A stretch of 33,651 nucleotides of DNA from Myxococcota bacterium (GTDB lineage: Bacteria > Myxococcota_A > UBA796 > JAJRTE01 > JBJTQF01): positions 1 through 33,651 of the forward strand of contig JBJTQF010000035.1 of NCBI GenBank assembly GCA_046075485.1, written 5' to 3'. This document shows positions 1,294 through 16,145 of this stretch, piece by piece. The notes under the pieces were generated by a model. That model had not been told where the DNA came from. It ran no database searches and saw nothing but the letters and a program-made list of their open reading frames with translations. Position numbers and translations under genes: made by a program. Each line of letters opens with the position of its first letter. The first letter of the stretch is position 1.

Positions 1294-4200
1294 TCAGTCT
1301 CTGAGGGCTCCGCGACGCAGTGCCGAAGTTGACGAGGAGCCTGCCTCCGCAGCACGTTCCGGCATCGGCAGCGTCTCGAGCCCTTGTGTCCACCCGCGCG
1401 AGTCCGTCAAACGAGGCATCTCCACCCGCCCATGCTCTGCCAGCCGTTCCGCCATCGCCCCTTGAGCCAGTCCGTCCGTCTGCCATACAAAAAGGTATCC
1501 TTTGCGGGTCATCGCCACCACCTCGTTGAGCCCATCCCCATTAATATCCCCCGCGCGGATCGCCGAGTAGACCCAGCCTCCCGTGAAGTGAGGCCAGCCC
1601 ACCGGCACCGTGCCATCAGCCTCCCAAGCGTGTAAGGCATAACCGCCGCTGGACATGAGGACTTCTGGCTTGCCATCCCCTGTGACATCGGCCACCTCCG
1701 GCGTCACAAACATCATGATGTCCTCGATCACCCGAGGCCAAGCGGGGAGCGCCCGTTCCGTCTCCACATCCCACACTGCGACCACATGATCCTGATAGGG
1801 CATCCACTTGTTGAGCAGGAGCGAGAGTCCCCAGTTGAGGCAAGTCATGCCCCCCACCAGCTCCGGCACCCCATCCCCCGTCACATCCCCAAACTTGAGA
1901 TTGGCCAGGTAGGTCAGCCCCCCGATCTCATCCGTGTTACGCTGGAGTCCCCAGCCGCTCTCATCACACGAGACCTCCGACGTCACCCGCCCAAAACCAT
2001 TGAGAATCACCGGACAACCGCCGGGAGCTGCCACCGCGACCTCCTGCGCTCCATCTTGGTCGATGTCCGACATCACCGGTGTCATGGTGATGCCTTCGCC
2101 CATATAGTTGACCACCCCGCTCAGATAGCCGTTGACCGTCACCGGCCAGCCGCGCACAAAAGGCCCCTCCGGGTTGAGTGTGCCATTGTGATGCACCGCA
2201 TACACATAGGTGATAAACGGGAGCTCCTCGCGGTACTCATTGGTGCCCATCACCAGCTCGAGGGAGCCATCCCCGTTGATATCACCGACGGCGGGGGTGG
2301 AGTAGATGCGGCCCTGGTTGTTGACATCCGCCTCAGCACTCTCCAGCTTGACGGGAAATCCGGGCTGTCGTGAGCCATCTTCCCGCCAGACATAGACCTT
2401 CTGATCCATTGCGGGCAGGACGATCTCCAGCAGACCATCTCCGTCGAGATCGGCGGGGACCGGACCCGCTGCCATGCCGGGGTCGAGCTGATGGGTGGGG
2501 TCGGTCTGCGCATCGCTGACTGCGTCTCGCTGAACAGGAAATCCGGCGCGGAGCTTTCCATCCGCCCCAAACACGTACAGATAACCATCCAGCGTCGAAG
2601 CCATGACCTCTTTTTGCCCATCTCCCTCCAGATCCGCCACCGCCACCGTGCCGAGAATGCCCTGGCGAGCTGGTACGATGCCGTCTTGAGCGTAAGGGCG
2701 AGCGCCGAGATGATGGTCTGGCGCGTTGGGATCGAGTGCCCGCTGAGGCCCCACACTGACCGGCCAGCCTGCCAGGTTTTTGGCCGCGCTGGTGATGGCG
2801 TGGATGCGTCCATCGAGGGTTCCCACCACGATCTCCTGAACACCATCACTGTTAAGATCTGCTAATACAGGGGAAGACTCACCCGGCGTCAGCTCCAGCG
2901 GAAATCCAGGCAACAGATCCGGATCAGCACTTAAGAAAAAGGTCTTACGCTGCTCCGACCGGTTGCCATAGCCGTCTTCTGCCCGCAGTCGGAGGGTGAT
3001 TGCATGCACATTCACCCGCTCGAGCTTTGTCAGCAGGGGATCCTCACCCGACGACGCCTCCAGCGGTGCGGCGGGGTCGAGCTTCTCCACGGGGATGCTG
3101 CTGGTGGGCCATGAGTAGATCACCCCATCCAGCGCATTGCTGGTACTCCCATTTTTGAGCAACGTGAAGGCGTCATCGCGGGCATCGGCACCCGGTGCCC
3201 ACTCCAGAGTCCAGGAATAGAGCCCGGTGCGAGGCGCTGCGAGGTGTGCATCTATTTGAATATTGGGTGTTCGTCGTGGATCGAGCACATCATAATAACG
3301 TGGATGATGGATGCGCACCTCCGGCGGGACTTTGTAAGGCTGTGCTTTTTCAAGGGCACGACGCGCATTCACACGACCATATCCAAAAAACTGATCCCAG
3401 CCGGGGTACGATGGAAAGTATGCACTCTGCCCCGTCTGACTCTCCCGCACATTAATATCATCTGCGGTGCTGGTGAGAATCGAGCGTACCTCATCGGCAG
3501 ACAGCTCCATTCCATTGTCAAGGGCGCGAGAATACACCAACCCTGCGATGCCAGAGATGATGGCGGTTGAGCCGGTTGCACAGTCATTGGTGGTGGCCAC
3601 GAGCTGAAGGTGAGCACCATAGTTATTGCAGCCATTAAAGGCCAAGAAGGTGCGGGCAAACTCCAGTCCATAGACGGGGTAGAACTCGATGCTATGCACG
3701 GGGATGACGTATTCATTGGCACCGGGTGGCAGGTGATGATACGAGAGCTCATCTCCGATGGCGGTGACGATGGTCACATCATGCGCGTATGCATACGCGA
3801 AGGCATCACGAAGGTATTGAGAGTTGGCAATGCCTCCCATCGCGATGGCGATGACCTTTGCACCACGATCTACCGCATAGATCACCCCCTGAGCGATCTT
3901 GTTTCCTTCGCCCATAAACGAATCACTGACACGCACTGGAAGGATGGCACAGTTGGGACAATAGCCGAGATCGGAGCTGTGATCGCCCAGCATGGCAGCC
4001 GCATCGGTCATCACGGCGGAGCCATGATAAAAATCGTTGGAGGCCGCCGGATCGTTGTCATTCCATAAAAAATCCCATCCCGCGATATCATCTACATATC
4101 CATTCTGATCATTGTCGATGCCATCCGAAAAAGCAGCCACAAGATCCGATGGATCCAACACCGAGTCTGCATCATTCCAGCCCATATCTGGGCGAACACG

Positions 4201-4770
4201 ATCATCATCGAGATAATCCCAGACCGTCAGATAACCGTCCCCGTTACAGTCGTCGGAGAAACAGACCTTCCCATCCGCCCCCAGCGGCGACGGCAGCTCC
4301 CCTCGGTTGAGCAGGGTCTTGGGCACAAACTCCTGCGCACGCCAGCGCACACCCGAGTCGATCACCGCAATGGGAATCTCATATCGCCCGGTGGAGAGCT
4401 GAAAGGCCCGATCAATCCAGTTTCCAGAGCCTAAACTCAGCTCTTCGGGGCGAACTCTCTTCTTCAGCTCGGGTTTAATAAAGCTGACGAAAGACCACGT
4501 AATGCCGCGCCAGCTCCCATCTGCATTGGTGAAATCTGGTGGACAGAGCTCGAGCGATTCGTTTTCACCGCAGCCCGGATAGGTTGGAGCCGGAAAAATC
4601 GGTGCCGCTAAAGCGGAGTCTGTTGAATGCCACACACTCAGACCCCATAACAACACCATCCAGCACAGCCCTCTCTTCAGGTGTGAGCTTGACGGAGGCT
4701 GTGGGCCACTCGATGGGGGGCTCAGTGCAGACGCTCGATACGAGGCGACACATGACGACACCTTGTGCAT
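1294..4770 (-). CDS. secreted subtilisin-like (S8) serine peptidase fused to ~8 FG-GAP (integrin-alpha-like) beta-propeller repeats
   Basis: The S8 motifs are present: the Asp motif IAVIDSGV, the His motif FYHGSAVMT, the GAKVIAIAMGG oxyanion region and the Ser motif GSTAIISGIAGL. Eight D-x-[ND/DG]-x-DG-x-x-E-[LIV]-[LV] repeats (DLNSDGVQEIVVGT, DLEGDGQKEVMAST, DLDGDGLLEIVLPA, DINGDGSLELVMGT and others) follow in the C-terminal half. I chose the start at 4770 (MHKVSS...) because a perfect AAGGAG lies 7 nt upstream. The longer ORF start at 4836 has no RBS. A hydrophobic signal-like stretch (LCWMVLLWGLSVW) follows. Confidence 0.8.
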   Translation of the reverse strand: MHKVSSCVASYRASALSPPSSGPQPPSSSHLKRGLCWMVLLWGLSVWHSTDSALAAPIFPAPTYPGCGENESLELCPPDFTNADGSWRGITWSFVSFIKPELKKRVRPEELSLGSGNWIDRAFQLSTGRYEIPIAVIDSGVRWRAQEFVPKTLLNRGELPSPLGADGKVCFSDDCNGDGYLTVWDYLDDDRVRPDMGWNDADSVLDPSDLVAAFSDGIDNDQNGYVDDIAGWDFLWNDNDPAASNDFYHGSAVMTDAAAMLGDHSSDLGYCPNCAILPVRVSDSFMGEGNKIAQGVIYAVDRGAKVIAIAMGGIANSQYLRDAFAYAYAHDVTIVTAIGDELSYHHLPPGANEYVIPVHSIEFYPVYGLEFARTFLAFNGCNNYGAHLQLVATTNDCATGSTAIISGIAGLVYSRALDNGMELSADEVRSILTSTADDINVRESQTGQSAYFPSYPGWDQFFGYGRVNARRALEKAQPYKVPPEVRIHHPRYYDVLDPRRTPNIQIDAHLAAPRTGLYSWTLEWAPGADARDDAFTLLKNGSTSNALDGVIYSWPTSSIPVEKLDPAAPLEASSGEDPLLTKLERVNVHAITLRLRAEDGYGNRSEQRKTFFLSADPDLLPGFPLELTPGESSPVLADLNSDGVQEIVVGTLDGRIHAITSAAKNLAGWPVSVGPQRALDPNAPDHHLGARPYAQDGIVPARQGILGTVAVADLEGDGQKEVMASTLDGYLYVFGADGKLRAGFPVQRDAVSDAQTDPTHQLDPGMAAGPVPADLDGDGLLEIVLPAMDQKVYVWREDGSRQPGFPVKLESAEADVNNQGRIYSTPAVGDINGDGSLELVMGTNEYREELPFITYVYAVHHNGTLNPEGPFVRGWPVTVNGYLSGVVNYMGEGITMTPVMSDIDQDGAQEVAVAAPGGCPVILNGFGRVTSEVSCDESGWGLQRNTDEIGGLTYLANLKFGDVTGDGVPELVGGMTCLNWGLSLLLNKWMPYQDHVVAVWDVETERALPAWPRVIEDIMMFVTPEVADVTGDGKPEVLMSSGGYALHAWEADGTVPVGWPHFTGGWVYSAIRAGDINGDGLNEVVAMTRKGYLFVWQTDGLAQGAMAERLAEHGRVEMPRLTDSRGWTQGLETLPMPERAAEAGSSSTSALRRGALRD

Positions 4771-5049
4771 GACTTGGCTCCTTTGCAGTCGATGGAATAG
4801 ATGCAGGTGGTGTTTGAGTGTGGCATCAGACCACACGCCTCTAACAACCCGCTTTACCCTATCTGCGCCAAGAATTTCACGTCAAGCGTTTCTTTGCCGG
4901 GAGGTTGTAAGGGCTGCTGACAAACAGAATCCTTACTCGACAAGTGAAGACAGATTGTGTAGAGTCAAAAGTCAGCAACATGCAGTGTGACCAGTTGCAA
5001 TATGGGGAATCATGGTCACGCCGAATTCGAATCGTGGCGGAGGCGACAC

Positions 5050-5400
5050 ATGCAGAGCATATTAAATGTAGAGGAGGCGCTCGAGCGCCTAGATGGTGAC
5101 CACGAGCTGTATGCAGAAGTGCTTCAGCTCTTCATGGAAGACACACCCAAGCTGCTTGACGCCCTCAAGCTCGAAGTGAGAGGCCATTCGAGCCGAGAAG
5201 CCACCCGCTTGGCTCATTCGATAAAGTCGGCGGCTGCAAATGTAGGTGCTTCAGAGGTCGCCCGACTGGCCGCTCAGTGTGAGCTGGCCGGAAAAAATGA
5301 TCGATGGGAGGAGCTGCCTCAGCTCGTATTTGGCCTCGACGAAGCCATGAGCATGCTGATGGGCACCGCGCACCACTGGCTCGATCAGCACCCTCTATAA
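5050..5400 (+). CDS. histidine-containing phosphotransfer (Hpt) domain protein, stand-alone
   Basis: The Hpt signature HSIKSAAANVGASEVARLAAQCE (phospho-accepting His followed by K-[SG]-x-[AS]-x-x-[VL]-GA) is present. The ORF track starts at a GTG at 4987. I prefer the ATG at 5050 (MQSIL...) because GGCGGAGG lies 6 nt upstream. Confidence 0.7.
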   Translation: MQSILNVEEALERLDGDHELYAEVLQLFMEDTPKLLDALKLEVRGHSSREATRLAHSIKSAAANVGASEVARLAAQCELAGKNDRWEELPQLVFGLDEAMSMLMGTAHHWLDQHPL

Positions 5401-5426
5401 GCGACCCACAGAAGCGACCCACAGAA
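5401..5426. repeat. 2 tandem copies of 13-bp unit GCGACCCACAGAA immediately after the Hpt stop codon
   Basis: Read directly. Confidence 0.85.
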
Positions 5427-5571
5427 GAGCAACGCACCTGCTCTCCCCACCTTTGAGCTTGCCATCCCAACCCTTGACAGGTGTGTCCCAGACTATCCTA
5501 TTGCCAATAAGCGCCTGTCGATGCGGTATCGCAGCCGTGCATGTCTCATAGGCTTGAATGTCTCCGACCGA

Positions 5572-8313
5572 TCACCACAAGGGCATGCTCAGGCTCACCC
5601 CCACGGAGGGCCTCAAGGGTTGAGCCAGGGGATGCTCTCGATAGGTGCCCGCTTCGGTGGCCATATAGTTGACCGTGGCCCCTGTTGGATCGTCCGAATC
5701 CACCGGTCCAGCCTCCAGCGCTCCATGCAGGGGCGCGAGCAGATTTCGCCCTTCCAGCGCCAGCTCCAGCCCACCCTCTAGCTGCGTGGCCAGTCGAGCA
5801 TTGAGGGTCGCGCGGGCAGGCAGGCGTACCGCGTTGATCTGCACTTGCCCATTGGCGTCAAAGCTCCGTAAATTCCAGGTCTGGCTCGACACCGCATGCA
5901 GATCGGTGCTCAGCGACCAGCGAGGCCGTGAGATCCGCAGCCCCGCGTTGAGCTTGTGGGGGGAGGTGCTGGCAAGAGGTTCCGCATCCGCCCCGTCGCC
6001 CTGCTGAATCCAGGTTAAGGCGTAGTTGGCATACAGATCCAGCCCCTCCCGAGGCGAGAGTTTGCCGCCCAGCTCAAGGCCCATCGCCGTGTGAGGCTCG
6101 TCCACGTTGACGTGGCGGGTGGTGCCTGCATACCAATATCCATCTGGATGATAGTTATCTTCACCTTCAGGCCAGGGCTCCACATCGGTCAGCTCCAGCA
6201 ATCCATTGACTCGATTCAGAAACAGACAGCTCTCGAGCTGATATTTTTCGCTGTCGGGGAGCTGCAAAAAGCCCAGCTCAAAGCTCACAATACGCTCGGG
6301 GCGGAGCTGAAGATTGCCCTGTGTCAGCACTGCCACGGCATCCGTGCTGGTCGGAATGGCTTGAGAGATATAGGACTCAAAAAAGGTCGGGGTACGAAAG
6401 GCGGTGCCCCCCACCAAACGTAAGGCACTCTCCGGGGTTAAGTGCCACAGGAAGGCACCACGCGGCGATAAGGCCAGCTTGTCCAGCAGCGACGCATCGG
6501 TGAGGGTCGCCAGCAGCGGATGGCGATCCGCACGCAGGCTCAAGGTGGTGCTGATGGGCTCCGACCACGCCGACTCCACCTGCACAAAGGCCGAGGCATG
6601 CTGCTCCGGCTCCACCAGCGGCAGCCACTCCCAGGTGATCCCCTTATAACGATATCCCAGCCCCGCATGAATCCGGTGAGACCCCACTCCGTCCAGGCGC
6701 TGAGAGTTTTCCAGCTCCACATCCACCACATGGCTCTTCGGATGAGAGCTGATGTCCAGCCCTCCCACCGGTATGGCCCACGGACTGGCAGTCATATCAA
6801 AATGATTCCAGAAGGTGCGGAACGAAAAACCCAGCGGCAACAACAAGTCCGCCCGTGCATAGCCGTAGAGCCCATCCACCACGTAGTCGCGCAGCGCTCC
6901 AATGGCCATAAACTCCGTCTGACCTTGAGCCAGCCCACCGGAGACACTCAACGAGATCTCCTGGGCCAAGCGCCGATCCACCCGCAGATCCAGACGAGAG
7001 ATGTGCGCCGCTTCCGACGGATAGGGGGCCTTGAGCTCGTAGTCTTGTCGATCCGGATCCACCTCCACGGCGTAACGTGCGCGTGTCTCAAAACCTGCCG
7101 AAGCTCGAAAGGCTGTCTGATCCTGCCTTCCGCTCACGCTCAAGCTGGTCAGCGCGTAGTCCGGCAGGCCGCCGCGTAAGACCAGCGTCGGTCGAGAGCC
7201 CGTGGCTCCCGGTGGCCGGGTGATGATGTTCACCACCCCACTAAACGCGCCCGCTCCGTACAGCGCCGCGCCCGGACCTCGGATCACCTCAATGCGCTCG
7301 ATGTCCTGCAAAGAGATCGACTGAAGGGTCCACAGGGTGGCCCCAATAAAGTCCAGATAGATCGAACGCCCATCCACCAGCACCAGCACTTTGTTGGAGA
7401 GCAGGGCGTTAAAACCTCGTACCCCCACCGAATAGTCCGCAGGGTTGAGGGCCATCACCTCCATGCCCGGTACTCGGCGTAAGGCTTCCGGCACCGAGAG
7501 CGCCCCAGAGCGACGCAGCTCATCGCCCGAAATGACCGTGATGGCACCCGGAGCATCCAGCGGCTGCTGAGCGTAACGTGAGGAGGTGATCACCTCCAGG
7601 GCATACGGATCGGCTTCACGCGGAAGCGCTTCGGGACTGACGGTCGAATTATCCGGTCTTGTCGGAGCTTTCGCTGGAGGTGCTCCCACGGAGGGGCTCG
7701 CAGTCCCCGAAGCGGAAGGATTTTCTTCGGTGCGCGCAGGGCCGGTGGGGTAAGCTGCTCGTTCCACTTGTGCGACCGCCTGCCGCAGCTCCGCCAGGGC
7801 TTGGGCCAGGGCTGGACTCGTGACGGCGGCTTCTCGTTCCGGGGGGGCTGTTTTTCCTGCGATATCGGAGGGTTGCCGGGCAGCTTCATCACCGCGGACG
7901 CTGGAGGCTCCGTATCCTTCGCGAATCATCTCCGTGCGTCGTTGCCGGGCGAGGTTGAGCAGCCGCTGAGCTTCTCCAGCATCTTCTGGAGCGGTTGCCA
8001 GATACTGCTCCAGCCGCGCAATGGCTTGAGGGTAATCTCCTGCCTCAAAACAAGCCCGCCCCATGTTAAAGAGCACCGCTGGATGAGGCAAGATCTCGTG
8101 GGCGCGCTCGAGCTGCTGGAGCCCTTCTTCGTAGCGCCCCTCTTTGATCAGGCGCATACCCTCAAGAAAGTGGCGGCGAGCATCTGCGCGGTCGTCCGCA
8201 TGCGCAGGCGAGAGCAGGCTTAAGCTGCACAAGAGCCCAGAGAGCAGGCTCCATCGACGGGGCAGAGCCCCCTTAAGTCGCGCGCTGGGCAATGGCTTTG
8301 ATGTGCTGGGCAT
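5572..8313 (-). CDS. TonB-dependent outer-membrane receptor with N-terminal TPR-repeat extension
   Basis: There is a signal peptide (…LLSPAHA/DD), then TPR-like helical repeats over roughly residues 45-140, then an Ala/Pro-rich linker. The TonB-dependent receptor plug signature follows (ITVISGDELRRSGALSVPEALRRVPGMEV…LVLVDGRSIY…IERIEVIRGPGAALYGAGAFSGVVNIITR). A long beta-barrel ends in an aromatic residue (…SLSMPLW). The start lies 8 bp after the stop of the upstream kinase gene. Confidence 0.85.
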   Translation of the reverse strand: MPSTSKPLPSARLKGALPRRWSLLSGLLCSLSLLSPAHADDRADARRHFLEGMRLIKEGRYEEGLQQLERAHEILPHPAVLFNMGRACFEAGDYPQAIARLEQYLATAPEDAGEAQRLLNLARQRRTEMIREGYGASSVRGDEAARQPSDIAGKTAPPEREAAVTSPALAQALAELRQAVAQVERAAYPTGPARTEENPSASGTASPSVGAPPAKAPTRPDNSTVSPEALPREADPYALEVITSSRYAQQPLDAPGAITVISGDELRRSGALSVPEALRRVPGMEVMALNPADYSVGVRGFNALLSNKVLVLVDGRSIYLDFIGATLWTLQSISLQDIERIEVIRGPGAALYGAGAFSGVVNIITRPPGATGSRPTLVLRGGLPDYALTSLSVSGRQDQTAFRASAGFETRARYAVEVDPDRQDYELKAPYPSEAAHISRLDLRVDRRLAQEISLSVSGGLAQGQTEFMAIGALRDYVVDGLYGYARADLLLPLGFSFRTFWNHFDMTASPWAIPVGGLDISSHPKSHVVDVELENSQRLDGVGSHRIHAGLGYRYKGITWEWLPLVEPEQHASAFVQVESAWSEPISTTLSLRADRHPLLATLTDASLLDKLALSPRGAFLWHLTPESALRLVGGTAFRTPTFFESYISQAIPTSTDAVAVLTQGNLQLRPERIVSFELGFLQLPDSEKYQLESCLFLNRVNGLLELTDVEPWPEGEDNYHPDGYWYAGTTRHVNVDEPHTAMGLELGGKLSPREGLDLYANYALTWIQQGDGADAEPLASTSPHKLNAGLRISRPRWSLSTDLHAVSSQTWNLRSFDANGQVQINAVRLPARATLNARLATQLEGGLELALEGRNLLAPLHGALEAGPVDSDDPTGATVNYMATEAGTYREHPLAQPLRPSVGVSLSMPLW

Positions 8314-8321
8314 GCAAAATC

Positions 8322-9872
8322 CTAATAGGGAGAGGGCTTATAACCTTCGGGAAGCACTTCTTCCTCGGCAGGTGCTGGGGCGGAGCGGTTGCTCGTGCGC
8401 GCTTTTTTGCGGGCGGGCGGACTGCGGGGAGGCTCTTCGGAGGTGGCCACCGGGGAGGCGGCGGCGTTCTCCGCTGTTGCAGGCACGGTTTCAGGCGGGG
8501 TGGCCCCTTTTCCTCCTGTCTCGGCGGAGGACAGGGCAGGGGAGGGCTTTGAAGCGCCGCTCATGTCCGCTGGATGCCCCTCTGCGCGGGTGGAGTGGGC
8601 TCCTTCAGCAAGGACTTTGTTGGTAGAACTGCTTGAGGGTGCCACTGTTGTTTCGGTCGTACCCTGGAGCGCTGAAGGTTGAAGCGACAGCGACCGGAGG
8701 GGGGGACTGGCTTCTGGACGGGGGGCGGAGGTCTGTGTGGGAGGTTTAAACAGCAGCACGCCGACCAGCAGCACGCCGCAGGCCGTCCCCAGCATGACGC
8801 TGAGTTGGCGTCGAGAGCGGAGCCAGCTTGGAAGCCACGCATAGGACCAGCCCACCGGCATCTCTCCGGCGTGGGTGAGGGGCAGGAGCAGCTCCGGCTC
8901 GAGCTCTAGGGGTTCCGTGCGGGTCTGGGTGAGCTGAGAAAAGTCGATGCCCAGGCCCTGACTGATGGGCATGAGGGTGGCCCACAGCTCATCCACGGAC
9001 TGGAAGCGGTCCTCGGGATTGCGGGCCATGAGCTTCTCGATCATCAAGATCAGGGTGGGAGGCAATCCCAGCTCCATTGGCAACTTAGGCGGCGCTTCGT
9101 GCAGCACCATCATGATGGTCTCGGCGGGGGAGCCTCCTTTGTACGGCAACTTGCCTGCGAGCATCAGATAGAGCACCACGCCCAACGAGTACAGATCGGA
9201 GCGGTGATCGGCTTTACCGGTCATGGCTTCGGGGGCCATATATTCCGGAGTGCCCAGCAGGGTGCCGGAGCGGGTGATCTCCATCGGGGTCTCGACGCTG
9301 AGCATGGGCTCGGGCTGGAGCATCTTGGCGATGCCAAAGTCGAGCACTTTGACGGTCTCGAGGCCATCTCGGGTCAGCAGAATGTTGGCGGGTTTGATGT
9401 CGCGATGCACGATGCCCCGGCGATGGGCTTCTCTCAGCGCCAGCGCAAGCTGCCGGGTGATGTTGAGGGCGCGGGCGGGCGGAAGTTTCCCTTCTCGGCG
9501 CATGAGCTGGGAGAGGGTCTGGCCATCCACCAGCTCCATGACGATATAATAGAGGTCAGACTCTGTGCGGCCATAGTCGAAGATGGTGACGGTGTGGGGG
9601 CTCGAGAGGCGACTGGTGGCGGCAGCTTCGAGGGCAAATCGTTGACGGAAGCTCGGATCATGGCCTGCTTGTTGTTCGGTCAAGTGCAGGGTCTTGATGG
9701 CCACTTGGCGACCCAGTGAGAGCTGCTCGGCCCGATAGACCTTGCCCATGCCTCCTTGAGCCAAGAGAGAGCCGATCCGATAGCGGCCATCGAGGAGCTG
9801 GCCCACCAGAGGATCGTCGTTTCCGCTTGTGCGCGTGGGAGGGCTGTCTCCCGCCTGTGTCCGCAACCCCAT
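8322..9872 (-). CDS. Ser/Thr protein kinase (Hanks-type), membrane-anchored with Pro/Ala/Ser-rich C-terminal tail
   Basis: Kinase subdomains are present: the Gly-loop [10 protein letters not shown], the catalytic Lys in VAIK, the catalytic loop [11 protein letters not shown], the DFGIAK motif and [12 protein letters not shown] helix ([18 protein letters not shown]) follows, then a ~150-aa low-complexity tail. A GAGG RBS lies upstream of the ATG at 9872. Confidence 0.9.
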
Positions 9873-9978
9873 CTTCAGCCTCGCTGCGCTAAGTGTACCC
9901 GCATTCGAATTCCGCTCTTCTCACGGTAACATGGGCCTCCACTCAAGTCAATTGTCACCCCAGCCACGGAAAGGTTGG

Positions 9979-10974
9979 CTAATGTACAGAAATCATCAAT
10001 CCAACGGTGGTGCCTGGTGCATCCGGCAGCGGCGGCACCAAGATGGGGTGGAGCGACACGAGCGTCTTCTCTTGAAGAGACCTCTGCGTCACGACGTTTA
10101 ACCGTGGGACCGGTGGCCGGAGCTTCTCCGGCAAAGAAAGAATCCGATTCACCCGCTCCGTCGCGGCTTTGGTCCGGAGGAGGTCCGACACGGTACACCC
10201 GACAAATCCCAGGACGGAAATACCCATCAGGCCGCCTCCCACCAACAGAATACGCGCTGCGGCGCTGACCTCGTAAGAGCCTCCGGTGAAGAGCCCATCG
10301 GCGACCTCAAGCAGCCCTACCGCGGCCCCGACCGATGTGAAGATCACACCCGCGATGCCCACGAACTGTGACCCTCGCCAGATCTGCACCGTATCGGGAT
10401 TCACCGCATAGGGCCCCAGGTACGACCGCCAAGCCAAGGATGGCCCTACCAGCAGTGTCACCGCTCCGAGCCCCGTCAAGGGGGGGAACACCGTCCCCGT
10501 CAGCATCATGCCTGCACCAACGCCTGCGGTGCCCAGCGTCCGGCGGAAAGCGATCTGCGCCGTCTTGGGGGTCAGGACACACTGGGCGCTGCACACATCG
10601 GTATTGGACAGGTTGCCGTCGTCACATTGCTCCCCGCTCTCCAGCACGGCATTCCCACAGGTCGCGACTTTATCTTCGTCCTGACAGCTCGCGCTACAGC
10701 CGTCGTTGTCCAGCGTATTGCCATCGTCACACTGCTCATGGAGCGCCAGCTTGTAGTCACCACAGATACCGATAGAGGCTTCTGCCAGACACAGGGCTGA
10801 GCACCCATCTCCGGCTGTCAGGTTTCCGTCATCGCAGGTCTCTCCCGCATCCAGCACGGCATTTCCGCAGGTGGCGGCCCCCACGCCTTCGCCCGCTTCC
10901 GCCCGGATATGAAGGCCCATCATCAGCAGCAGCGCCACAACCCATCCCCATCCCTTCAGCCAGCCTCCGCTCAT
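9979..10974 (-). CDS. membrane protein with signal peptide, three 'Myxococcus cysteine-rich repeats' and polytopic C-terminal domain
   Basis: There are three copies of C-G-N-x-V-L-[DE]-x-G-E-x-C-D-D-G-N-x-x-x-x-D-G-C-S-x-x-C, matching the Myxococcales-specific cysteine-rich repeat (TIGR02232-like). About 5 hydrophobic helices follow. I chose the ATG at 10974 (MSGGWLKG…) because GGGGAG lies 5 nt upstream. The track start at 10980 is a GTG. Confidence 0.7.
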   Translation of the reverse strand: MSGGWLKGWGWVVALLLMMGLHIRAEAGEGVGAATCGNAVLDAGETCDDGNLTAGDGCSALCLAEASIGICGDYKLALHEQCDDGNTLDNDGCSASCQDEDKVATCGNAVLESGEQCDDGNLSNTDVCSAQCVLTPKTAQIAFRRTLGTAGVGAGMMLTGTVFPPLTGLGAVTLLVGPSLAWRSYLGPYAVNPDTVQIWRGSQFVGIAGVIFTSVGAAVGLLEVADGLFTGGSYEVSAAARILLVGGGLMGISVLGFVGCTVSDLLRTKAATERVNRILSLPEKLRPPVPRLNVVTQRSLQEKTLVSLHPILVPPLPDAPGTTVGLMISVH

Positions 10975-11175
10975 AACCACTCCCCATTCTTGCTCTTTGT
11001 TACGGTTATGTCAGGCGGTACTTCCCGGACGTCAGCGCCCCATGACGCACCACCTTGACGGGTGTTTTCCCAGGTGGTGATGGCCTGTTTTTAACGGACT
11101 CTTTCAAGGGCCCTCGCGCATGCCACGAGAGCCCAACACTCTATTCAGCAGGTCCGGGTGAAAAGCGAGTGTGCG

Positions 11176-11976
11176 TTAAGGCTTCACAAAAAGCATCACG
11201 AACCGGTCGCTGGTTCCCCGCCGTTCTCCCGCAGCCCTCGGGGAGCTATTCCAATCGCGGGTATCTTCAGGGTTGCGCAGGAAGTCAGCCTCGCCCCGGT
11301 AGAGGAAGCCTGCTTTTTCAACCTCCGCTTTCACCACCTGCTGGTCGATGCGGTGAAACGTCTGCACATCCTGAGTGCCACTGCCCATTTTCCCGCTGTG
11401 ATCGACCACCGCGTAAATGCCACCGGGCTTGAGGGCTTGGTAGATGGCGGCGTTCATGGCATTCCGGTCGATGCCCATCCACACAAAATCGTGGTAGACC
11501 AGAATGCTGAAGACCCGGTCGAAGTCCTTCACCTCCGCCGGAAAGGGATCATCGAAGGCCCGATCCAGTCGCACCACGTTGGACAGAATCGGCTTCTGAA
11601 GGCGTTCCGCCCAGGGCTTCTCTGCAAAACGTTCTAACATCGGCGGGCTGTTCACGCCATAGACCTTGCCGTCGGGCCCGACCACTCGCGCCAAGAGCTC
11701 GGCTGTATAGCCGCCGCCCGAAAAGAGCTCTGCCACCTTCTGACCGGGTGCCACCTGAAAATACGCCAGCAGCTCGGCTGGATGACGGCCCGCATCAAGG
11801 TCACGATCCGCCTGAGTGCGATCTGCGGCATTCACAGCGGACGAAATGGGGACTGGGACCGCCATCCGTCCCGCCGAAGCAGACGCCGAAGCAGACGCCG
11901 CAGGGACATTGGAGCTGGGGGTTTTGCCCGCACAGGCCGTCAGGGCCAACATCAGTGCAAAAACAACACGTCTCAT
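11176..11976 (-). CDS. lipoprotein, class I SAM-dependent methyltransferase domain
   Basis: A lipobox signal is present (MRRVVFALMLALTAC). The SAM-binding motif I is VAELFSGGGYTAELLA, followed by GKVYGVN. I chose the start at 11976 because GGAG lies 6 nt upstream. Confidence 0.7.
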   Translation of the reverse strand: MRRVVFALMLALTACAGKTPSSNVPAASASASASAGRMAVPVPISSAVNAADRTQADRDLDAGRHPAELLAYFQVAPGQKVAELFSGGGYTAELLARVVGPDGKVYGVNSPPMLERFAEKPWAERLQKPILSNVVRLDRAFDDPFPAEVKDFDRVFSILVYHDFVWMGIDRNAMNAAIYQALKPGGIYAVVDHSGKMGSGTQDVQTFHRIDQQVVKAEVEKAGFLYRGEADFLRNPEDTRDWNSSPRAAGERRGTSDRFVMLFVKP

Positions 11977-12271
11977 GTGAGACTCCATGCTTTAGGTCTG
12001 TAACAGGGGTGAAGGTCGTAGGGTATCATCATCCAACCCGTGCTTCAATGGCGTCGGCACGCATCCGTCATGAGCTGTTCTAGGGAGGGCCGGGGGCAAG
12101 AGGTCGATGGTTGGCTTTTGTCTGATGCGCACAGTCGGAAAATACGTGTCATGATGTTCTGTAATGGGCGGTGCTGGTAGGGCAAGCAGGAATGCGGTGA
12201 TCATTCGGTGGAGAAAGGGGTGCAACGTCTGTCTTATTAATGTGACAGAGACGTCGGCGGGGAGCGACGGA

Positions 12272-13366
12272 TCAGGGGAGAAATAGTGCTTCAAGGCTGG
12301 GGGTGGTGGCGGCGGCCACCAAGAGGGCGGAGAGCTGGTCGGGCTCGGTGAGTGCTTCAAGCTGGGTGCGTAGCGGCGGTGGTACGCTGCCAAACCGTGC
12401 TTCCAAAATCTGGAGGATGCTTTCTCGCTGAGCTGCGAGCCTGCCGACTGCCTGGCCCTGATGAAGACCTTCATGCAGACCCTGTTGCAGACCCTGTTGC
12501 AGACCTTCGAGCCTGCCTTGCTCCAGACCGCTCTTCGTGTAGTGCCGTGCCCAAGCGTTCTGGTAGCTGATGGCGTCCATGCGCTCCTTCATCTCAAAGA
12601 CCGAGGCAAACCGCAAGTCTGGGCTTCGGCTGACTTTTCTGAGCTTGTCATCCACTTCATTGAGAAGTTTTAATCCCATCTTCGTAACCTCCTCGTGTGA
12701 GAGCCGTTCGGCGTGCTTTAGATAGTATAGCCATTTCTCCTGGTCTGTCCGCAGCTCTTTCGGGGGGATCTTAAACTTGCGCAGCTCCGCAAAGACCAGG
12801 GTGAGCTGATCAGACAGTTCCTTCCCAGAGCTCGTATCACATAGCCGGCCCTGGGTCACCGGATGAGGCCAGTCTGAGACCGGCGTGAGCAGGTTCCAGC
12901 TCAAGATATGAATGCTGATCGAACGTCCGAGCTCGGCATAGTCCTGGCCCGCATCGAGCTGCTGTGAATGAATCCGGGTGAGATAGAAGACGGCCCGGGC
13001 CATATAGTCCGGCTGGCCGACGAGCTGAAGCTCAATGTGCAGCAGACGCCCCTCATCATCCCGCACGAGCAGATCCAGAACGGGGGTTTTATCACCCGCG
13101 TGAGGGCTGAGCTGACGGGTCTCGAGCCGCTCGACCTTGCGGATCTGATCGCGCTGCTCGAGCTGGAGCAGCGCATTGAGGAGCCCGATGAGCAGGCGAT
13201 GATCGTTTTCGCCGTCAAAGACGCGGAGAAAAACGACCTCCAGGATGAGCTTGAGCTTGCCATTGAAGTCATGACGAAGGATGTGCTCGGAATAGGCTCT
13301 GAGGAGCGTATCGAGCTGTTCGGAGTTCTCAGGGATGTCAAAGATGTCAAAAGTATCGATTGGCAT
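12272..13366 (-). CDS. Rpn-family recombination-promoting nuclease / putative transposase (PD-(D/E)XK, YhgA-like) with DUF4351-like C-terminus
   Basis: A PD-(D/E)XK core is present (…DLLVRDDEGRLLHIELQ…). The C-terminal module is typical of Rpn proteins (GRLEGLQQGLQQGLHEGLHQG…ILEARFG.VP…LEAL.). The gene and its flanks are visibly lower in GC than their neighbours. I chose the ATG at 13366 (MPIDTFD…) because a GAGGG RBS precedes it. The track start at 13435 is a GTG. Confidence 0.65.
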   Translation of the reverse strand: MPIDTFDIFDIPENSEQLDTLLRAYSEHILRHDFNGKLKLILEVVFLRVFDGENDHRLLIGLLNALLQLEQRDQIRKVERLETRQLSPHAGDKTPVLDLLVRDDEGRLLHIELQLVGQPDYMARAVFYLTRIHSQQLDAGQDYAELGRSISIHILSWNLLTPVSDWPHPVTQGRLCDTSSGKELSDQLTLVFAELRKFKIPPKELRTDQEKWLYYLKHAERLSHEEVTKMGLKLLNEVDDKLRKVSRSPDLRFASVFEMKERMDAISYQNAWARHYTKSGLEQGRLEGLQQGLQQGLHEGLHQGQAVGRLAAQRESILQILEARFGSVPPPLRTQLEALTEPDQLSALLVAAATTPSLEALFLP

Positions 13367-13706
13367 GTGGAAACCCTCATAAAACTGAAGAGCTAAGTCT
13401 CCTAAGCAGTTTACCACACATTTGGGACGATGCACCGCATCCAGTGATGCCGTGAGCCTGAGCCAGCCGTGGTCGCGCCCCCTCTGCCTCGAGGCTCTCT
13501 TGGGGCTCGCGCGTTTTCCCCACCTGGACCCACCTCCACTGCTTCCCTCGTGCAGCCGTCTTGCTTACGCAGGCGCGATGCCAAAATAGCCGTTGCTTCT
13601 GCGTTTTTTTGATCCAGTCTCACACATTTCAATCAAGACAATCCAAGCTCGTTCCGATAAACCAGCGGTGAGAACCCCTTAATTCCCGCTTTGGATGGAC
13701 TGAGCC

Positions 13707-16145
13707 ATGATCACCATACCCCGATCTCCACGTCTACCGTCGCTCGTTGGGTGCTCCTTTGTATCGCGCATGAGGCGCACGCCCTCGCTGCTGCTGCTGG
13801 CCTGTGTGTCGTCACTGCTGACCGCTTGTGATGACGGACATTATGCCATCGATATCGGCATCTATCCCACGGTGACGCCGATGGTGGAGACTCCGACCGC
13901 CACTCCCGCTGAGCATCCCAGCCCGACCCCCACGCCCGAGCAGACCCCTCCGATGGATCAAGATGGTGATGGCTACAACGTGCAGACCGACTGCGACGAC
14001 TTGGATCCCAACCTCTACCCCGGAGCCCCTGAGCGCCCCTACGATGGCATCGATCAAGACTGCTCCGGCACCGACCTCATCGATGTGGATGGAGACGGAT
14101 TTTCCTCCGTCGTGGTGGGGGGAGACGACTGCAACGACTACAACGCCAGCATCTTTCCCACTCAATCCGAGACCGCCGATGGGCTCGACAACAACTGCTC
14201 GGGAGCTGCCGACGAAAACACCGAGGTCATCGACGATGACGGAGATGGCTTTAACGAGCTCGCCGGAGACTGCGACGATGCCAATCCCTCCCGCTTTCCT
14301 GGCGCGGCGGAAGTCCCCTACGATCAGGTCGATCAAGACTGTGATGGTGCCGATCTCGCCGATGTGGATCGGGATGGTGTGCCCGGTGGAGCAGAGGGCG
14401 CCGATTGTGACGATTATAATGCGGCCATCTCTCCCCGCATGCCCGAGCAGTGCAACGGCAGCGACGACAACTGTGATGGACAGGTGGATGAGGCGCTCGA
14501 AGTGCTCTCGTATGAAGATCGGGATCAAGACGGTTTTGGCAACAGCAACCGCCCCGTCAAAACCTGTGACAGTGGCTTTCAGACTTCCACCCAGGGAGGA
14601 GACTGCAACGACAGCAGCAGCAGTATCCATCCAGGTGCTTCGGAGAGCTGCGATGGTCAGGACAATGACTGTAACGGCACAGTGGATGATAACGCCGGCA
14701 ACCTCTTCTACCAAGATCGAGATGGTGATCTCCAGGGCAATTTGGCTGTCACCTCGAGAGGATGCACCCTCCCGAGTGGTTTTGTGGCCAACAGCCGCGA
14801 CTGTAATGATCAGGATCCCGCCATCTATTCCGGTGCCCCCGAGCGATGTAATGGCATCGATGACGACTGTGATCAGCTCGCCGATGAAGACATCCGCCGC
14901 ACCGTCTATCCCGACCAAGACGGGGATGGTTATGGCCTGAGCACCCAACCTTCTCAAGATTGTATGCTCCGCCCTGGTTTTGTAGACAATGGCGCAGACT
15001 GCGATGACACCTCCAGCGCCATCCGTCCCGGAGCCCTCGAGCTGTGCAATGGCATCGACGACGACTGTGATGGTGCCTTCGACGATGGATATGCTCAGCG
15101 CACCTACTTCCGTGACATGGATGAGGATGGTTATGGCAACCACTCATTGCCGCTCAGTGCTTGTGCGCCTCCAGATGGATATGTCGAGCGTGGGGACGAC
15201 TGCAATGACGCCGATGCAAAGATTTATCCCGACGCCGATGAGCAATGTGACGCCCTCGACAACGACTGTGATGGCAAATACGATGAAGAGGTAACGACCC
15301 TTTATTACCTGGATACCGATGGAGATGGTTTTGGGGTGAATGATGTCACCTTCGTCGGCTGCGCTGCTCCTGCCGGATTCTCCGCCAGCAGTGGAGACTG
15401 CAACGATGGCGAAGCTCAGGTCAATCCCGGTGTGGCCGAAGACGCGAACCTCGAGGACGACAACTGCAACGGCCAAGTCGATGAAGGGGTCTATTTCAAG
15501 AGCTGCGCGGAGCTCCACTCAGCGGATCCCAGCGCGCCTTCCGGTGCCTACGTGCTGGATGTGGATGGTGTTGAAGGGGCCATGCCTCCCCGCAGTATTT
15601 GGTGTGAGATGTCCCGCGACGGTGGAGGCTGGACCCTGTGTGCTTCTTTTGGCCATCAGCGCGCTCACGACGGCCTGGGGTTCACCACGGAGACCTGGTC
15701 TACCGGCTCTTTTGCCTTCCTCTCGGGGGGATCGGTCACGAGCTGGGGCAACTTCTGTCCAGAACTCTCAGTAAATGAGCTGTATGTGGAGATGCGCAGC
15801 AATCCCAAGACCACGCTCTTTACCACCGGCCTCTTCCGCACCCTGGGAGAAAATCCTTTCACACTGGAGGGTTTTAGCTCGTATGGCAACGGTGAGAAAG
15901 ATGTCGTGGCTTTTTATAACCGCTCCTCGGCTCAACCTCGGGGTCAGTTCTTCAGTGGCATCGGCTGTGGTACGCAGAGCTCACTCGCCAGTCAGGGCTC
16001 GGCGCTCTGTGTGAGTGATGGCACGGCCTATCAGACGATGGTGGGTGATAAAGACGGCAACGACGCCGCCGATGATTGGATGAACACCCTCTCAAGCATC
16101 GGTGGCATGGACGAGGACAATGCCCTGCTCTACTTCGTGCGCTGA
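13707..16145 (+). CDS. secreted lipoprotein with ~9 tandem MopE-type 'putative metal-binding motif' repeats and a C-terminal fibrinogen-like (FReD) domain
   Basis: There are repeated ~45-55-aa units of the form D-x-D-[GQ]-D-G-[YF]…DC[ND]D…I.PGA.E.CNG.DDDC[DN]G, the Cu-binding_MopE / putative metal-binding motif common in Myxococcales. The C-terminal ~250 aa contains GAYVLDVDG…PPRSIWCEMSRDGGGWTLC, matching the fibrinogen C-terminal core (VYCDM.TDGGGWTV). A lipobox signal MRRTPSLLLLACVSSLLTAC is present. The true start may be the ATG at 13770 rather than 13707. Confidence 0.8.
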   Translation: MITIPRSPRLPSLVGCSFVSRMRRTPSLLLLACVSSLLTACDDGHYAIDIGIYPTVTPMVETPTATPAEHPSPTPTPEQTPPMDQDGDGYNVQTDCDDLDPNLYPGAPERPYDGIDQDCSGTDLIDVDGDGFSSVVVGGDDCNDYNASIFPTQSETADGLDNNCSGAADENTEVIDDDGDGFNELAGDCDDANPSRFPGAAEVPYDQVDQDCDGADLADVDRDGVPGGAEGADCDDYNAAISPRMPEQCNGSDDNCDGQVDEALEVLSYEDRDQDGFGNSNRPVKTCDSGFQTSTQGGDCNDSSSSIHPGASESCDGQDNDCNGTVDDNAGNLFYQDRDGDLQGNLAVTSRGCTLPSGFVANSRDCNDQDPAIYSGAPERCNGIDDDCDQLADEDIRRTVYPDQDGDGYGLSTQPSQDCMLRPGFVDNGADCDDTSSAIRPGALELCNGIDDDCDGAFDDGYAQRTYFRDMDEDGYGNHSLPLSACAPPDGYVERGDDCNDADAKIYPDADEQCDALDNDCDGKYDEEVTTLYYLDTDGDGFGVNDVTFVGCAAPAGFSASSGDCNDGEAQVNPGVAEDANLEDDNCNGQVDEGVYFKSCAELHSADPSAPSGAYVLDVDGVEGAMPPRSIWCEMSRDGGGWTLCASFGHQRAHDGLGFTTETWSTGSFAFLSGGSVTSWGNFCPELSVNELYVEMRSNPKTTLFTTGLFRTLGENPFTLEGFSSYGNGEKDVVAFYNRSSAQPRGQFFSGIGCGTQSSLASQGSALCVSDGTAYQTMVGDKDGNDAADDWMNTLSSIGGMDEDNALLYFVR

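Follow-up and report, generated by a model that had tools for sequence, protein, structure and literature searches.

To our knowledge, TonB-dependent transducers have so far been known to signal only via pairs of an anti-sigma factor and an extracytoplasmic function (ECF) sigma factor, as in FecA-FecR-FecI. Myxobacteria carry about a hundred Hanks-type Ser/Thr kinases each, and their kinome is mostly orphan, with no identified input for nearly all of its members. Here we analyse a 33,651-nt stretch of DNA from a Myxococcota bacterium (the complete contig JBJTQF010000035.1 of the metagenome-derived assembly GCA_046075485.1; hereafter the window, at its full length), on which the gene of an inner-membrane Hanks kinase is directly followed by that of a TonB-dependent receptor with an N-terminal tetratricopeptide repeat (TPR) extension. 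In a preliminary description, made from the letters of the DNA, these two genes were reported to lie 8 bp apart on the same strand and were suggested to form a transducer wired to a Hanks kinase instead of an anti-sigma/ECF pair, an arrangement not recognised as a characterised one. Both open reading frames (ORFs) were found where they had been placed, on the minus strand and with an 8-nt spacer between them. The suggested wiring gained support in silico from the conservation of the pairing and from the predicted TPR fold. Four observations go beyond that description: a conserved peptide at the end of the kinase, the existence of a large family rather than a one-off, a third gene, and a minority of family members without such a kinase nearby. 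No published account of a kinase-coupled or TPR-extended TonB receptor was found in the literature searched either; subscription journals were thinly covered, so that this absence is not proof.

TPR-extended TonB receptors form a large family, with more than 1000 matches. Homologs sharing 54%, 48%, 44%, 37% and 35% identity with the window receptor, one of them from cultured Archangium lansingense, all have a Pkinase gene directly upstream on the same strand, and the genes flanking these pairs are unrelated. One genome per GTDB species was then scanned, yielding 24 loci that match the receptor from the TPR onward and 56 that match from the plug onward only. The latter correspond to generic TonB receptors and constitute a built-in control; loci were scored with hidden Markov models (HMMs) built in this analysis. 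A same-strand adjacent upstream kinase was present in 27 of the 31 assessable TPR-receptor loci and in none of the 49 assessable controls (Fisher P = 2e-17, a value that overstates the independence of the loci because they are phylogenetically related). Leaving out two loci picked from the kinase side, the proportion is 25/29. Those two picks provide a reciprocal test: kinases P0163 and P0240, selected by their C-terminal motif alone, are both encoded directly upstream of a TPR-Plug-barrel receptor. Conservation of the two genes as same-strand neighbours, on which the preliminary description had made its proposal depend, thus holds from 54% down to about 35% receptor identity. Three Pkinase genes are present in the window, a circumstance that could favour chance adjacency in a kinase-rich genome. 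Such an origin is refuted by the synteny (27/31 vs 0/49, orientation and spacing being identical in distant lineages), by the recovery of receptors from the kinase side and by the family-specific C-terminal motif of the kinases, and we attach practically no weight to it.

The four TPR-receptor loci scored as non-adjacent are of several kinds: one has its kinase at 3.2 kb (L028), one has a divergent kinase (L003), and two were scored 'none' (L030 and L090), of which L030 nonetheless has a divergent, motif-less kinase. In L028, a protein with a methyl-accepting chemotaxis protein (MCP) signalling domain (2380-3261, plus strand) and a response-regulator-SpoIIE/PP2C phosphatase (3704-5479, plus strand) are encoded between the motif-bearing kinase and the TPR receptor; this insertion of an MCP-domain protein and a receiver-PP2C phosphatase is consistent with a signalling operon. 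Other variations on the arrangement were observed. One motif-bearing kinase gene in L092 is followed by two tandem TPR-receptor paralogs (7885-10398 and 10401-13016, plus strand) and then by a gene for a lipoprotein (see below), and in L090/L091, and probably in L015, the TPR is duplicated, the lipoprotein triplicated and the kinase missing. Two loci from metagenome-assembled genomes (MAGs) labelled Proteobacteria (L088 and L089) show the same kinase-receptor arrangement. Receptors of this family are encoded by cultured Myxococcus (fulvus, stipitatus and eversor), Corallococcus coralloides, Stigmatella aurantiaca, Archangium, Melittangium, Hyalangium and Pyxidicoccus; the cultured strains in which kinase adjacency was verified are Archangium lansingense (L005/L006) and Vitiosangium sp. 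GDMCC 1.1324 (L013).

The window kinase, which is identical to an NCBI MAG protein annotated at 516 aa, possesses all the hallmarks of Hanks kinases (G-loop, VAIK Lys, alphaC Glu, HRD, DFG and APE are intact). The preliminary description had given it one transmembrane (TM) helix and a Pro/Ala/Ser-rich tail of about 150 aa; the helix and the composition stand, and the length has to be corrected to 141 aa (P 17%, A 16%, S 15%, hydrophobic residues 11%). The sequence RSRRQ precedes the TM segment on its cytoplasmic side, and this fits an orientation in which the catalytic domain is inside and the tail in the periplasm. No curated NCBIfam family was reached at its cutoff by the kinase, by the receptor or by the lipoprotein presented below. 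The best NCBIfam match of the kinase is the PASTA-kinase model NF033483 (297 bits vs a 450-bit cutoff, over the catalytic domain only), and no PASTA domain was found in the protein with Pfam or NCBIfam.

When the partner kinases are aligned, their periplasmic tails prove unalignable except for the last residues, which are near-invariant: G-[YF]-[KR]-x-[DES]-P-Y-COOH. The window kinase carries a longer form of this terminus, PEGYKPSPY. A motif G-[YF]-[KRM]-x-x-P-[YFD], situated 0-4 residues from the C-terminus, closes 26 of the 27 adjacent kinases. The exact ending G[YF][KR]xxPY-COOH was found in 77 of the 120 closest kinase-domain homologs from a collection of 5.8 billion proteins, and about 9 more have it with a one-residue insertion; the motif-ending homologs are all 466-622 aa long, the rest of the 120 being other architectures or fragments. 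In a set of 73 sequences, G(-7), P(-2) and Y(-1) are present in all 73, position -6 is Y in 68 and F in 5, position -5 is K in 71 and R in 2, and D, E or S occupies position -3 in 71. The motif is also specific, since among 14,635 six-frame ORFs from all loci it closes only partner kinases and one spurious 69-aa ORF. Its variants are GYMxxPDD, in one subclade, and GYKSNPFD, in L088 and L089. The catalytic motifs are kept in all partner kinases but that of L004 (6597-7955, plus strand), which has HRN for HRD and has lost its G-loop, yet retains the end PEGYKESPY. Judging from these changes, the L004 protein is probably a pseudokinase, and the survival of the motif on a degenerate kinase points to selection on the tail contact itself. 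A PEGA domain was observed ahead of the terminal motif in the kinase tails of L005/L006, L088, L089 and L093; the kinase gene of L006 is split, so that the PEGA domain and the motif are called as a separate 103-aa ORF (7682-7993).

At the junction between the two window genes, the kinase reading frame ends with TAT-TAG (8327-8322, the stop codon TAG being 8324-8322), the receptor ATG occupies 8313-8311 and the spacer reads gattttgc. An AGGA Shine-Dalgarno-like element overlaps the kinase stop codon, 6 nt ahead of the receptor ATG. In a promoter/terminator scan, terminator-like sites were found within ORFs only (6 vs a shuffle expectation of 3.9 +/- 2.2) and none at the junction, a scan that says little beyond the junction having no terminator. 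The 8-nt gap, the Shine-Dalgarno-like element over the stop codon and the lack of an excess of terminator-like sites argue for co-transcription of the kinase and receptor genes. The operon-like junction would also suit two proteins that share an operon without touching each other. The kinase would then regulate the use of, or the response to, what is imported, and the receptor would be a plain transporter whose TPR serves assembly or localisation; a canonical transporter fold with a TonB-box-like segment (see below) and the density of kinases in myxobacterial genomes (three in the 33.6-kb window) go in the same direction. However, a near-invariant peptide on an otherwise unconstrained periplasmic tail, the retention of this tail by the degenerate L004 kinase, and the exclusive association of the kinase with TPR-bearing receptors (0/49 controls) would all be left unexplained, and we regard an operon without physical contact as decidedly improbable.

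The other side of the proposed contact is provided by the receptor. The three domains expected from the preliminary description, TPR, Plug and TonB_dep_Rec, were all found by Pfam: TPR_19/TPR_2 over cutoff at residues 55-119, the plug, and the TonB_dep_Rec barrel (PF00593, E 2e-26) at residues 543-858. An AlphaFold2 (AF2) model computed from a 102-sequence alignment (pLDDT 86.9, pTM 0.84) shows, in order, a signal helix (17-32), five helices (41-138, pLDDT 92-98), a disordered stretch, a helix (167-187), disorder up to residue 232, a TonB-box-like strand, the plug and the barrel, the latter with a pLDDT above 90. Foldseek places the plug and barrel with those of Cir, FepA, PirA and BtuB (E 1e-31 to 1e-29; TMt 0.71-0.86), in keeping with the 22-strand barrel around a plug that characterises TonB-dependent transporters, and by sequence the plug aligns with those of Cir, BtuB and FecA. 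The TonB-box-like segment is conserved in the family, the alignment starting at residue 9 of BtuB and Cir. Against the SusC/RagA model TIGR04056 the receptor scores 46 bits vs a cutoff of 368 bits. About 100 aa of TPR repeats and an Ala/Pro-rich linker had been said to stand in place of the FecA-type signalling domain, and this reading was borne out: the extension consists of two repeats and a cap over some 98 aa, no STN (Secretin/TonB N-terminal) domain (PF07660) was found in the receptor with Pfam, and the linker is 98 aa long (Ala 22%, Pro 15%).

The TPR is one of the best-conserved regions of the receptor family. That the N-terminal region would adopt a TPR fold, another point on which the preliminary description depended, is what structure prediction gave, both in the full-length model and for the isolated domain (pLDDT 94.2), which superimposes on consensus TPR proteins (CTPR2/3) with a root mean square deviation of 1.3-1.4 A. 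Consensus TPR proteins were also matched by the receptor with E values of 1e-18 to 7e-28. Its nearest natural folds include LpoP and the TPRs of FKBP52-MEEVD, CHIP, SGT/Sgt2 and Tah1; those of FKBP52-MEEVD, CHIP, Sgt2 and Tah1 were solved with C-terminal peptides. When G52 and G85 are set as TPR position 8, the residues conserved in at least 90% of sequences fall into two groups. A45, G52, A71, P76, L81, Y104 and P109 belong to the TPR structural consensus, and R46 (position 2), F49 (position 5), H77, N83 (position 6 of repeat 2) and R86 (position 9) are non-structural, these five being invariant or close to it. The ligand groove of characterised TPRs is lined by the helix-A residues at positions 2, 5, 6 and 9, and the carboxylate clamp of Hop includes an Asn found at position 6 of the second repeat. 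By the numbering that we take to be the canonical one, R46, F49, N83 and R86 match these ligand-groove and clamp positions, so these four side chains presumably face the groove. When the TPR-domain alignment was run as a profile against 1.84 billion representatives, long proteins with many TPR repeats dominated the result because each repeat adds to their score, and no usable family size was obtained. Between the receptors that accompany GYKxxPY and GYMxxPDD kinases, the TPR changes at helix-A positions 9 and 12 of repeat 1, R46, F49, N83 and R86 being fixed; these class-specific changes were not counted as covariation because they represent essentially one phylogenetic event.

The genetic coupling of the two genes is established by the data. 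That the kinase and the receptor are also functionally coupled is very probable. Both family-specific conserved features, the peptide at the end of the kinase tail and the TPR on its flexible linker, face the periplasm, and a bridge between them is the most economical mechanism. The module would consist of a TonB-dependent transducer in the outer membrane coupled to an inner-membrane Ser/Thr kinase, with no anti-sigma/ECF pair. The receptor TPR would hang into the periplasm on its linker of about 100 residues, N-terminal to the TonB box. The catalytic domain of the kinase would be cytoplasmic, and its disordered Pro/Ala/Ser tail of about 140 residues would cross the periplasm and present the end G-Y-K-x-[D/E/S]-P-Y-COOH to the TPR groove (R46, F49, N83, R86); capture of this peptide would create a physical bridge between the two membranes. 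Binding of a ligand to the receptor, together with a TonB-driven movement of the plug and N-terminus, could then pull, release or cluster the tether, and the change in the tether could alter kinase activity and hence the phosphorylation of cytoplasmic targets. We favour this combination, in which the TPR contacts the terminal peptide and a signal travels from outside to inside through the kinase, but with modest confidence.

Several observations weigh against it. In about a quarter of the lineages the kinase continues for another 1-4 residues after the motif (GYMPLPDDF, GYKSNPFD, PYQ), and a strict clamp on the terminal carboxylate is therefore not universal. The domain has only two TPR repeats, whereas classical TPR clamps have three; Tah1 is a precedent with two. 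The conserved TPR residues are also kept in family members that have no motif-bearing kinase nearby. These are L090/L091, with their duplicated TPR; L022, where the 1.3 kb of upstream sequence at hand contains no ORF with the motif; L003 and L030, each with a kinase that is divergent and motif-less; and L026, whose adjacent kinase lacks the motif. Since these loci lack the kinase or the motif, their TPR must have another ligand or a partner encoded elsewhere. Finally, no tonB or exbBD genes were found in the window.

Kinase-less members that keep the conserved TPR residues, in addition to the occasional position of the motif short of the very C-terminus, are points in favour of a coupling that uses some other contact. 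The motif might be read by the plug, the linker helix, a periplasmic tail-specific protease, peptidoglycan-associated proteins or the lipoprotein, and the TPR might bind TonB/ExbD, the linker helix (167-187) or the imported substrate. The conservation of this helix is a further point in favour; it may serve the TPR as a self-ligand, mediate dimerisation or bind a partner. The presence of the lipoprotein in 27/32 assessable loci also speaks for such a contact. Three arguments stand on the other side: the window and its closest relative L001 retain the motif without the lipoprotein, a Pro-rich polar motif is better suited to lie as an extended peptide in a TPR groove than to beta-augmentation, and the TPR and the motif, the two conserved features peculiar to the family, occur together. 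A coupling through contacts of this other kind is, in our estimation, unlikely. The features that the TPR-peptide bridge would involve are located in Table 1.

Table 1. Coordinates of the kinase and receptor genes of the window, of their parts and of the related lipoprotein genes
Feature	Position	Strand	Basis
Gene 1, single-pass inner-membrane Hanks-type Ser/Thr kinase, 516 aa	8322-9872	-	ORF; Pkinase E 5e-47
Cytoplasmic kinase catalytic domain, residues 31-291	9000-9782	-	Pfam PF00069; motif inspection
Kinase transmembrane helix, residues 357-375	8748-8804	-	Hydropathy scan, H = 2.42
Kinase periplasmic low-complexity tail, P/A/S/T-rich, residues 376-509	8346-8747	-	Sequence; unalignable among relatives
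Kinase C-terminal motif G-Y-K-P-S-P-Y-COOH, residues 510-516	8325-8345	-	Conserved across the partner-kinase family
Junction: TAG stop, 8-nt spacer, AGGA Shine-Dalgarno-like element	8314-8324	-	Sequence
Gene 2, TonB-dependent receptor with N-terminal TPR extension, 913 aa	5572-8313	-	ORF, Pfam, AF2, Foldseek
Receptor signal peptide, residues 1-39, predicted cleavage after AHA (A39)	8197-8313	-	A37 and A39 at least 90% conserved; AF2 helix 17-32
Receptor periplasmic TPR domain, two TPR repeats and capping helix, residues 41-138	7900-8193	-	Pfam, AF2, conservation
Receptor Ala/Pro-rich flexible linker, residues 139-236	7606-7899	-	AF2, composition
Amphipathic helix in the receptor linker, residues 167-187	7753-7815	-	L169 and L176 at least 90% conserved, heptad spacing; AF2
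Putative TonB-box region YALEVITSSR, residues 237-246	7576-7605	-	Family consensus D-x-Y-x-x-x-V-V-T-A-S-R-Y
Receptor plug domain, residues 252-360	7234-7560	-	PF07715, E 2e-23
Receptor beta-barrel, residues 376-913	5575-7188	-	AF2, Foldseek: canonical TonB-dependent transporter fold
Lipoprotein genes of other loci (L002-L029, L088-L093 range), examples	L007 10566-11723; L005 10547-11794; triplicated, L090 8869-11784		

In the loci that possess it, the lipoprotein is encoded by a homologous ORF directly downstream of the receptor gene and on the same strand. The proteins of this family, 170 to more than 800 aa in total length, are characterised by a signal peptide bearing a lipobox Cys and by a beta-rich domain of some 190 aa, conserved and N-terminal. 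They have no Pfam or NCBIfam match save DUF2141 in L090, and none to SusD. This unannotated lipoprotein family is probably a third component of the module. It was not detected with the family HMM in the window or in L001, and because the motif and the TPR persist in both, the motif does not have the lipoprotein as an obligatory partner. The window represents a reduced, two-gene form in which the lipoprotein was lost. A 101-aa ORF of the window (5165-5470, minus strand) was considered as a remnant of the lipoprotein gene and rejected, since the family HMM gives no match to it.

Downstream of the receptor, the window and L001 have instead a convergent gene for a stand-alone Hpt domain protein (window 4987-5400, plus strand; L001 10864-11253, minus strand), with which a phosphorelay link is possible, and a gene for a large secreted-type S8 subtilase with FG-GAP repeats (window 1294-4836, minus strand; L001 11583-14987). 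A subtilase of this type also occurs near the TPR receptors of L090 (1-2782), there 3 kb upstream. In Myxococcus, secretion of the subtilisin-like protease PopC requires Oar, which is a TonB-dependent transporter, and the proximity of the protease genes in these three loci would fit an inside-out role, with an Oar-like receptor and a kinase that gates the export of some secreted protein encoded nearby, for instance the S8/FG-GAP protease. Most family loci have no such protease, however, the convergent Hpt gene separates it from the receptor in the window, and no sequence relationship to the CarboxypepD_reg extensions of the Oar type was detected with Pfam. An export function therefore seems very improbable.

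The window contains other genes worth reporting. Besides the partner kinase, it encodes two further Hanks kinases (24458-26149 and 30472-33195, both on the plus strand), the second with C-terminal TPR repeats; the end of the first is overlapped by an Exo_endo_phos gene (26146-27015). Nine putative metal-binding repeats of the MopE type (PF11617, E 6e-90) make up part of an 812-aa protein that is encoded near the kinase in the window (13707-16145, plus strand) and in L001 (3460-5910, minus strand). A 741-aa ORF (19701-21926, plus strand) carries a Major Vault Protein (MVP) shoulder (PF11978, E 7e-28) and a Vault_3 repeat (E 8e-9), and corresponds to an MVP-like protein in a bacterial contig. 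Finally, a gene for a PD-(D/E)XK_2 transposase-family protein (12272-13435, minus strand; PF12784, E 4e-38) overlaps a 160-aa ORF (11992-12474) without a Pfam family match.

If the TPR-peptide bridge does operate, the repertoire of trans-envelope signalling would be wider than described, and part of the myxobacterial kinome would receive an extracellular input. We put forward, tentatively, that the module may represent a third, unrecognised class of cell-surface signalling in diderms, occurring widely among Myxococcota (cultured Myxococcus, Corallococcus, Stigmatella and Archangium included) as well as in Oligoflexia-like lineages, and feeding such an input to part of the kinome. A seven-residue terminal peptide and a small TPR groove would make a defined, mutable contact, testable in cultured, genetically tractable carriers.

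Among the closest described systems is FecA-FecR-FecI, with which the module shares an outer-membrane TonB-dependent receptor that has a periplasmic N-terminal extension before the (here putative) TonB box, an adjoining gene for a single-pass inner-membrane protein whose periplasmic part would reach the receptor, and the presumed logic of reporting ligand occupancy to the cytoplasm. It lacks the two features that define that family: the extension has a TPR fold instead of an STN fold, and the inner-membrane partner is a Hanks Ser/Thr kinase and not an anti-sigma factor (no FecR or sigma-70 ECF family was found among the 20 largest window ORFs scanned). In addition, what this partner seems to present is not a folded domain in the periplasm but a short peptide at the tip of a disordered tail. 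The output would be phosphorylation, as opposed to regulated proteolysis and release of a sigma factor. In its topology the kinase resembles TonB itself, since both have an N-terminal inner-membrane anchor, a long Pro-rich periplasmic span and a C-terminal end which, in TonB, contacts the N-terminal periplasmic part of the receptor and, in the kinase, is proposed to do so. The kinase has no TonB C-terminal domain and no signal of association with ExbB/ExbD, and unlike TonB it has a cytoplasmic kinase domain attached. The roles would also be reversed, the receptor giving the folded domain (TPR) and the inner-membrane protein the peptide.

Compared with the PASTA kinases PknB, PrkC and StkP, the window protein has the same cytoplasmic Hanks domain, single TM segment and extracytoplasmic C-terminal part, but it lacks PASTA repeats and any other folded sensor, and sensing would fall to a separate protein in the outer membrane. 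A lipoprotein gene right after that of the receptor, as in most relatives, is reminiscent of SusC/SusD-like and TbpA/TbpB pairs, although the lipoprotein is not SusD-like and the window lacks it. As for the proposed contact, the receptor TPR is like the carboxylate clamps of co-chaperones (Hop, CHIP, FKBP52, SGT/Sgt2 and Tah1) in being a small module of similar fold with conserved Asn and basic residues at presumed groove positions of helix A, and the proposed ligand is, like the EEVD-COOH tails which those TPRs bind, a conserved peptide at the extreme end of a disordered tail. Unlike these clamps, the domain described here would act in the bacterial periplasm, is fused to a beta-barrel transporter, has two repeats (as Tah1) rather than three, and would have as its putative ligand G-Y-K-x-x-P-Y, which is unrelated to EEVD.

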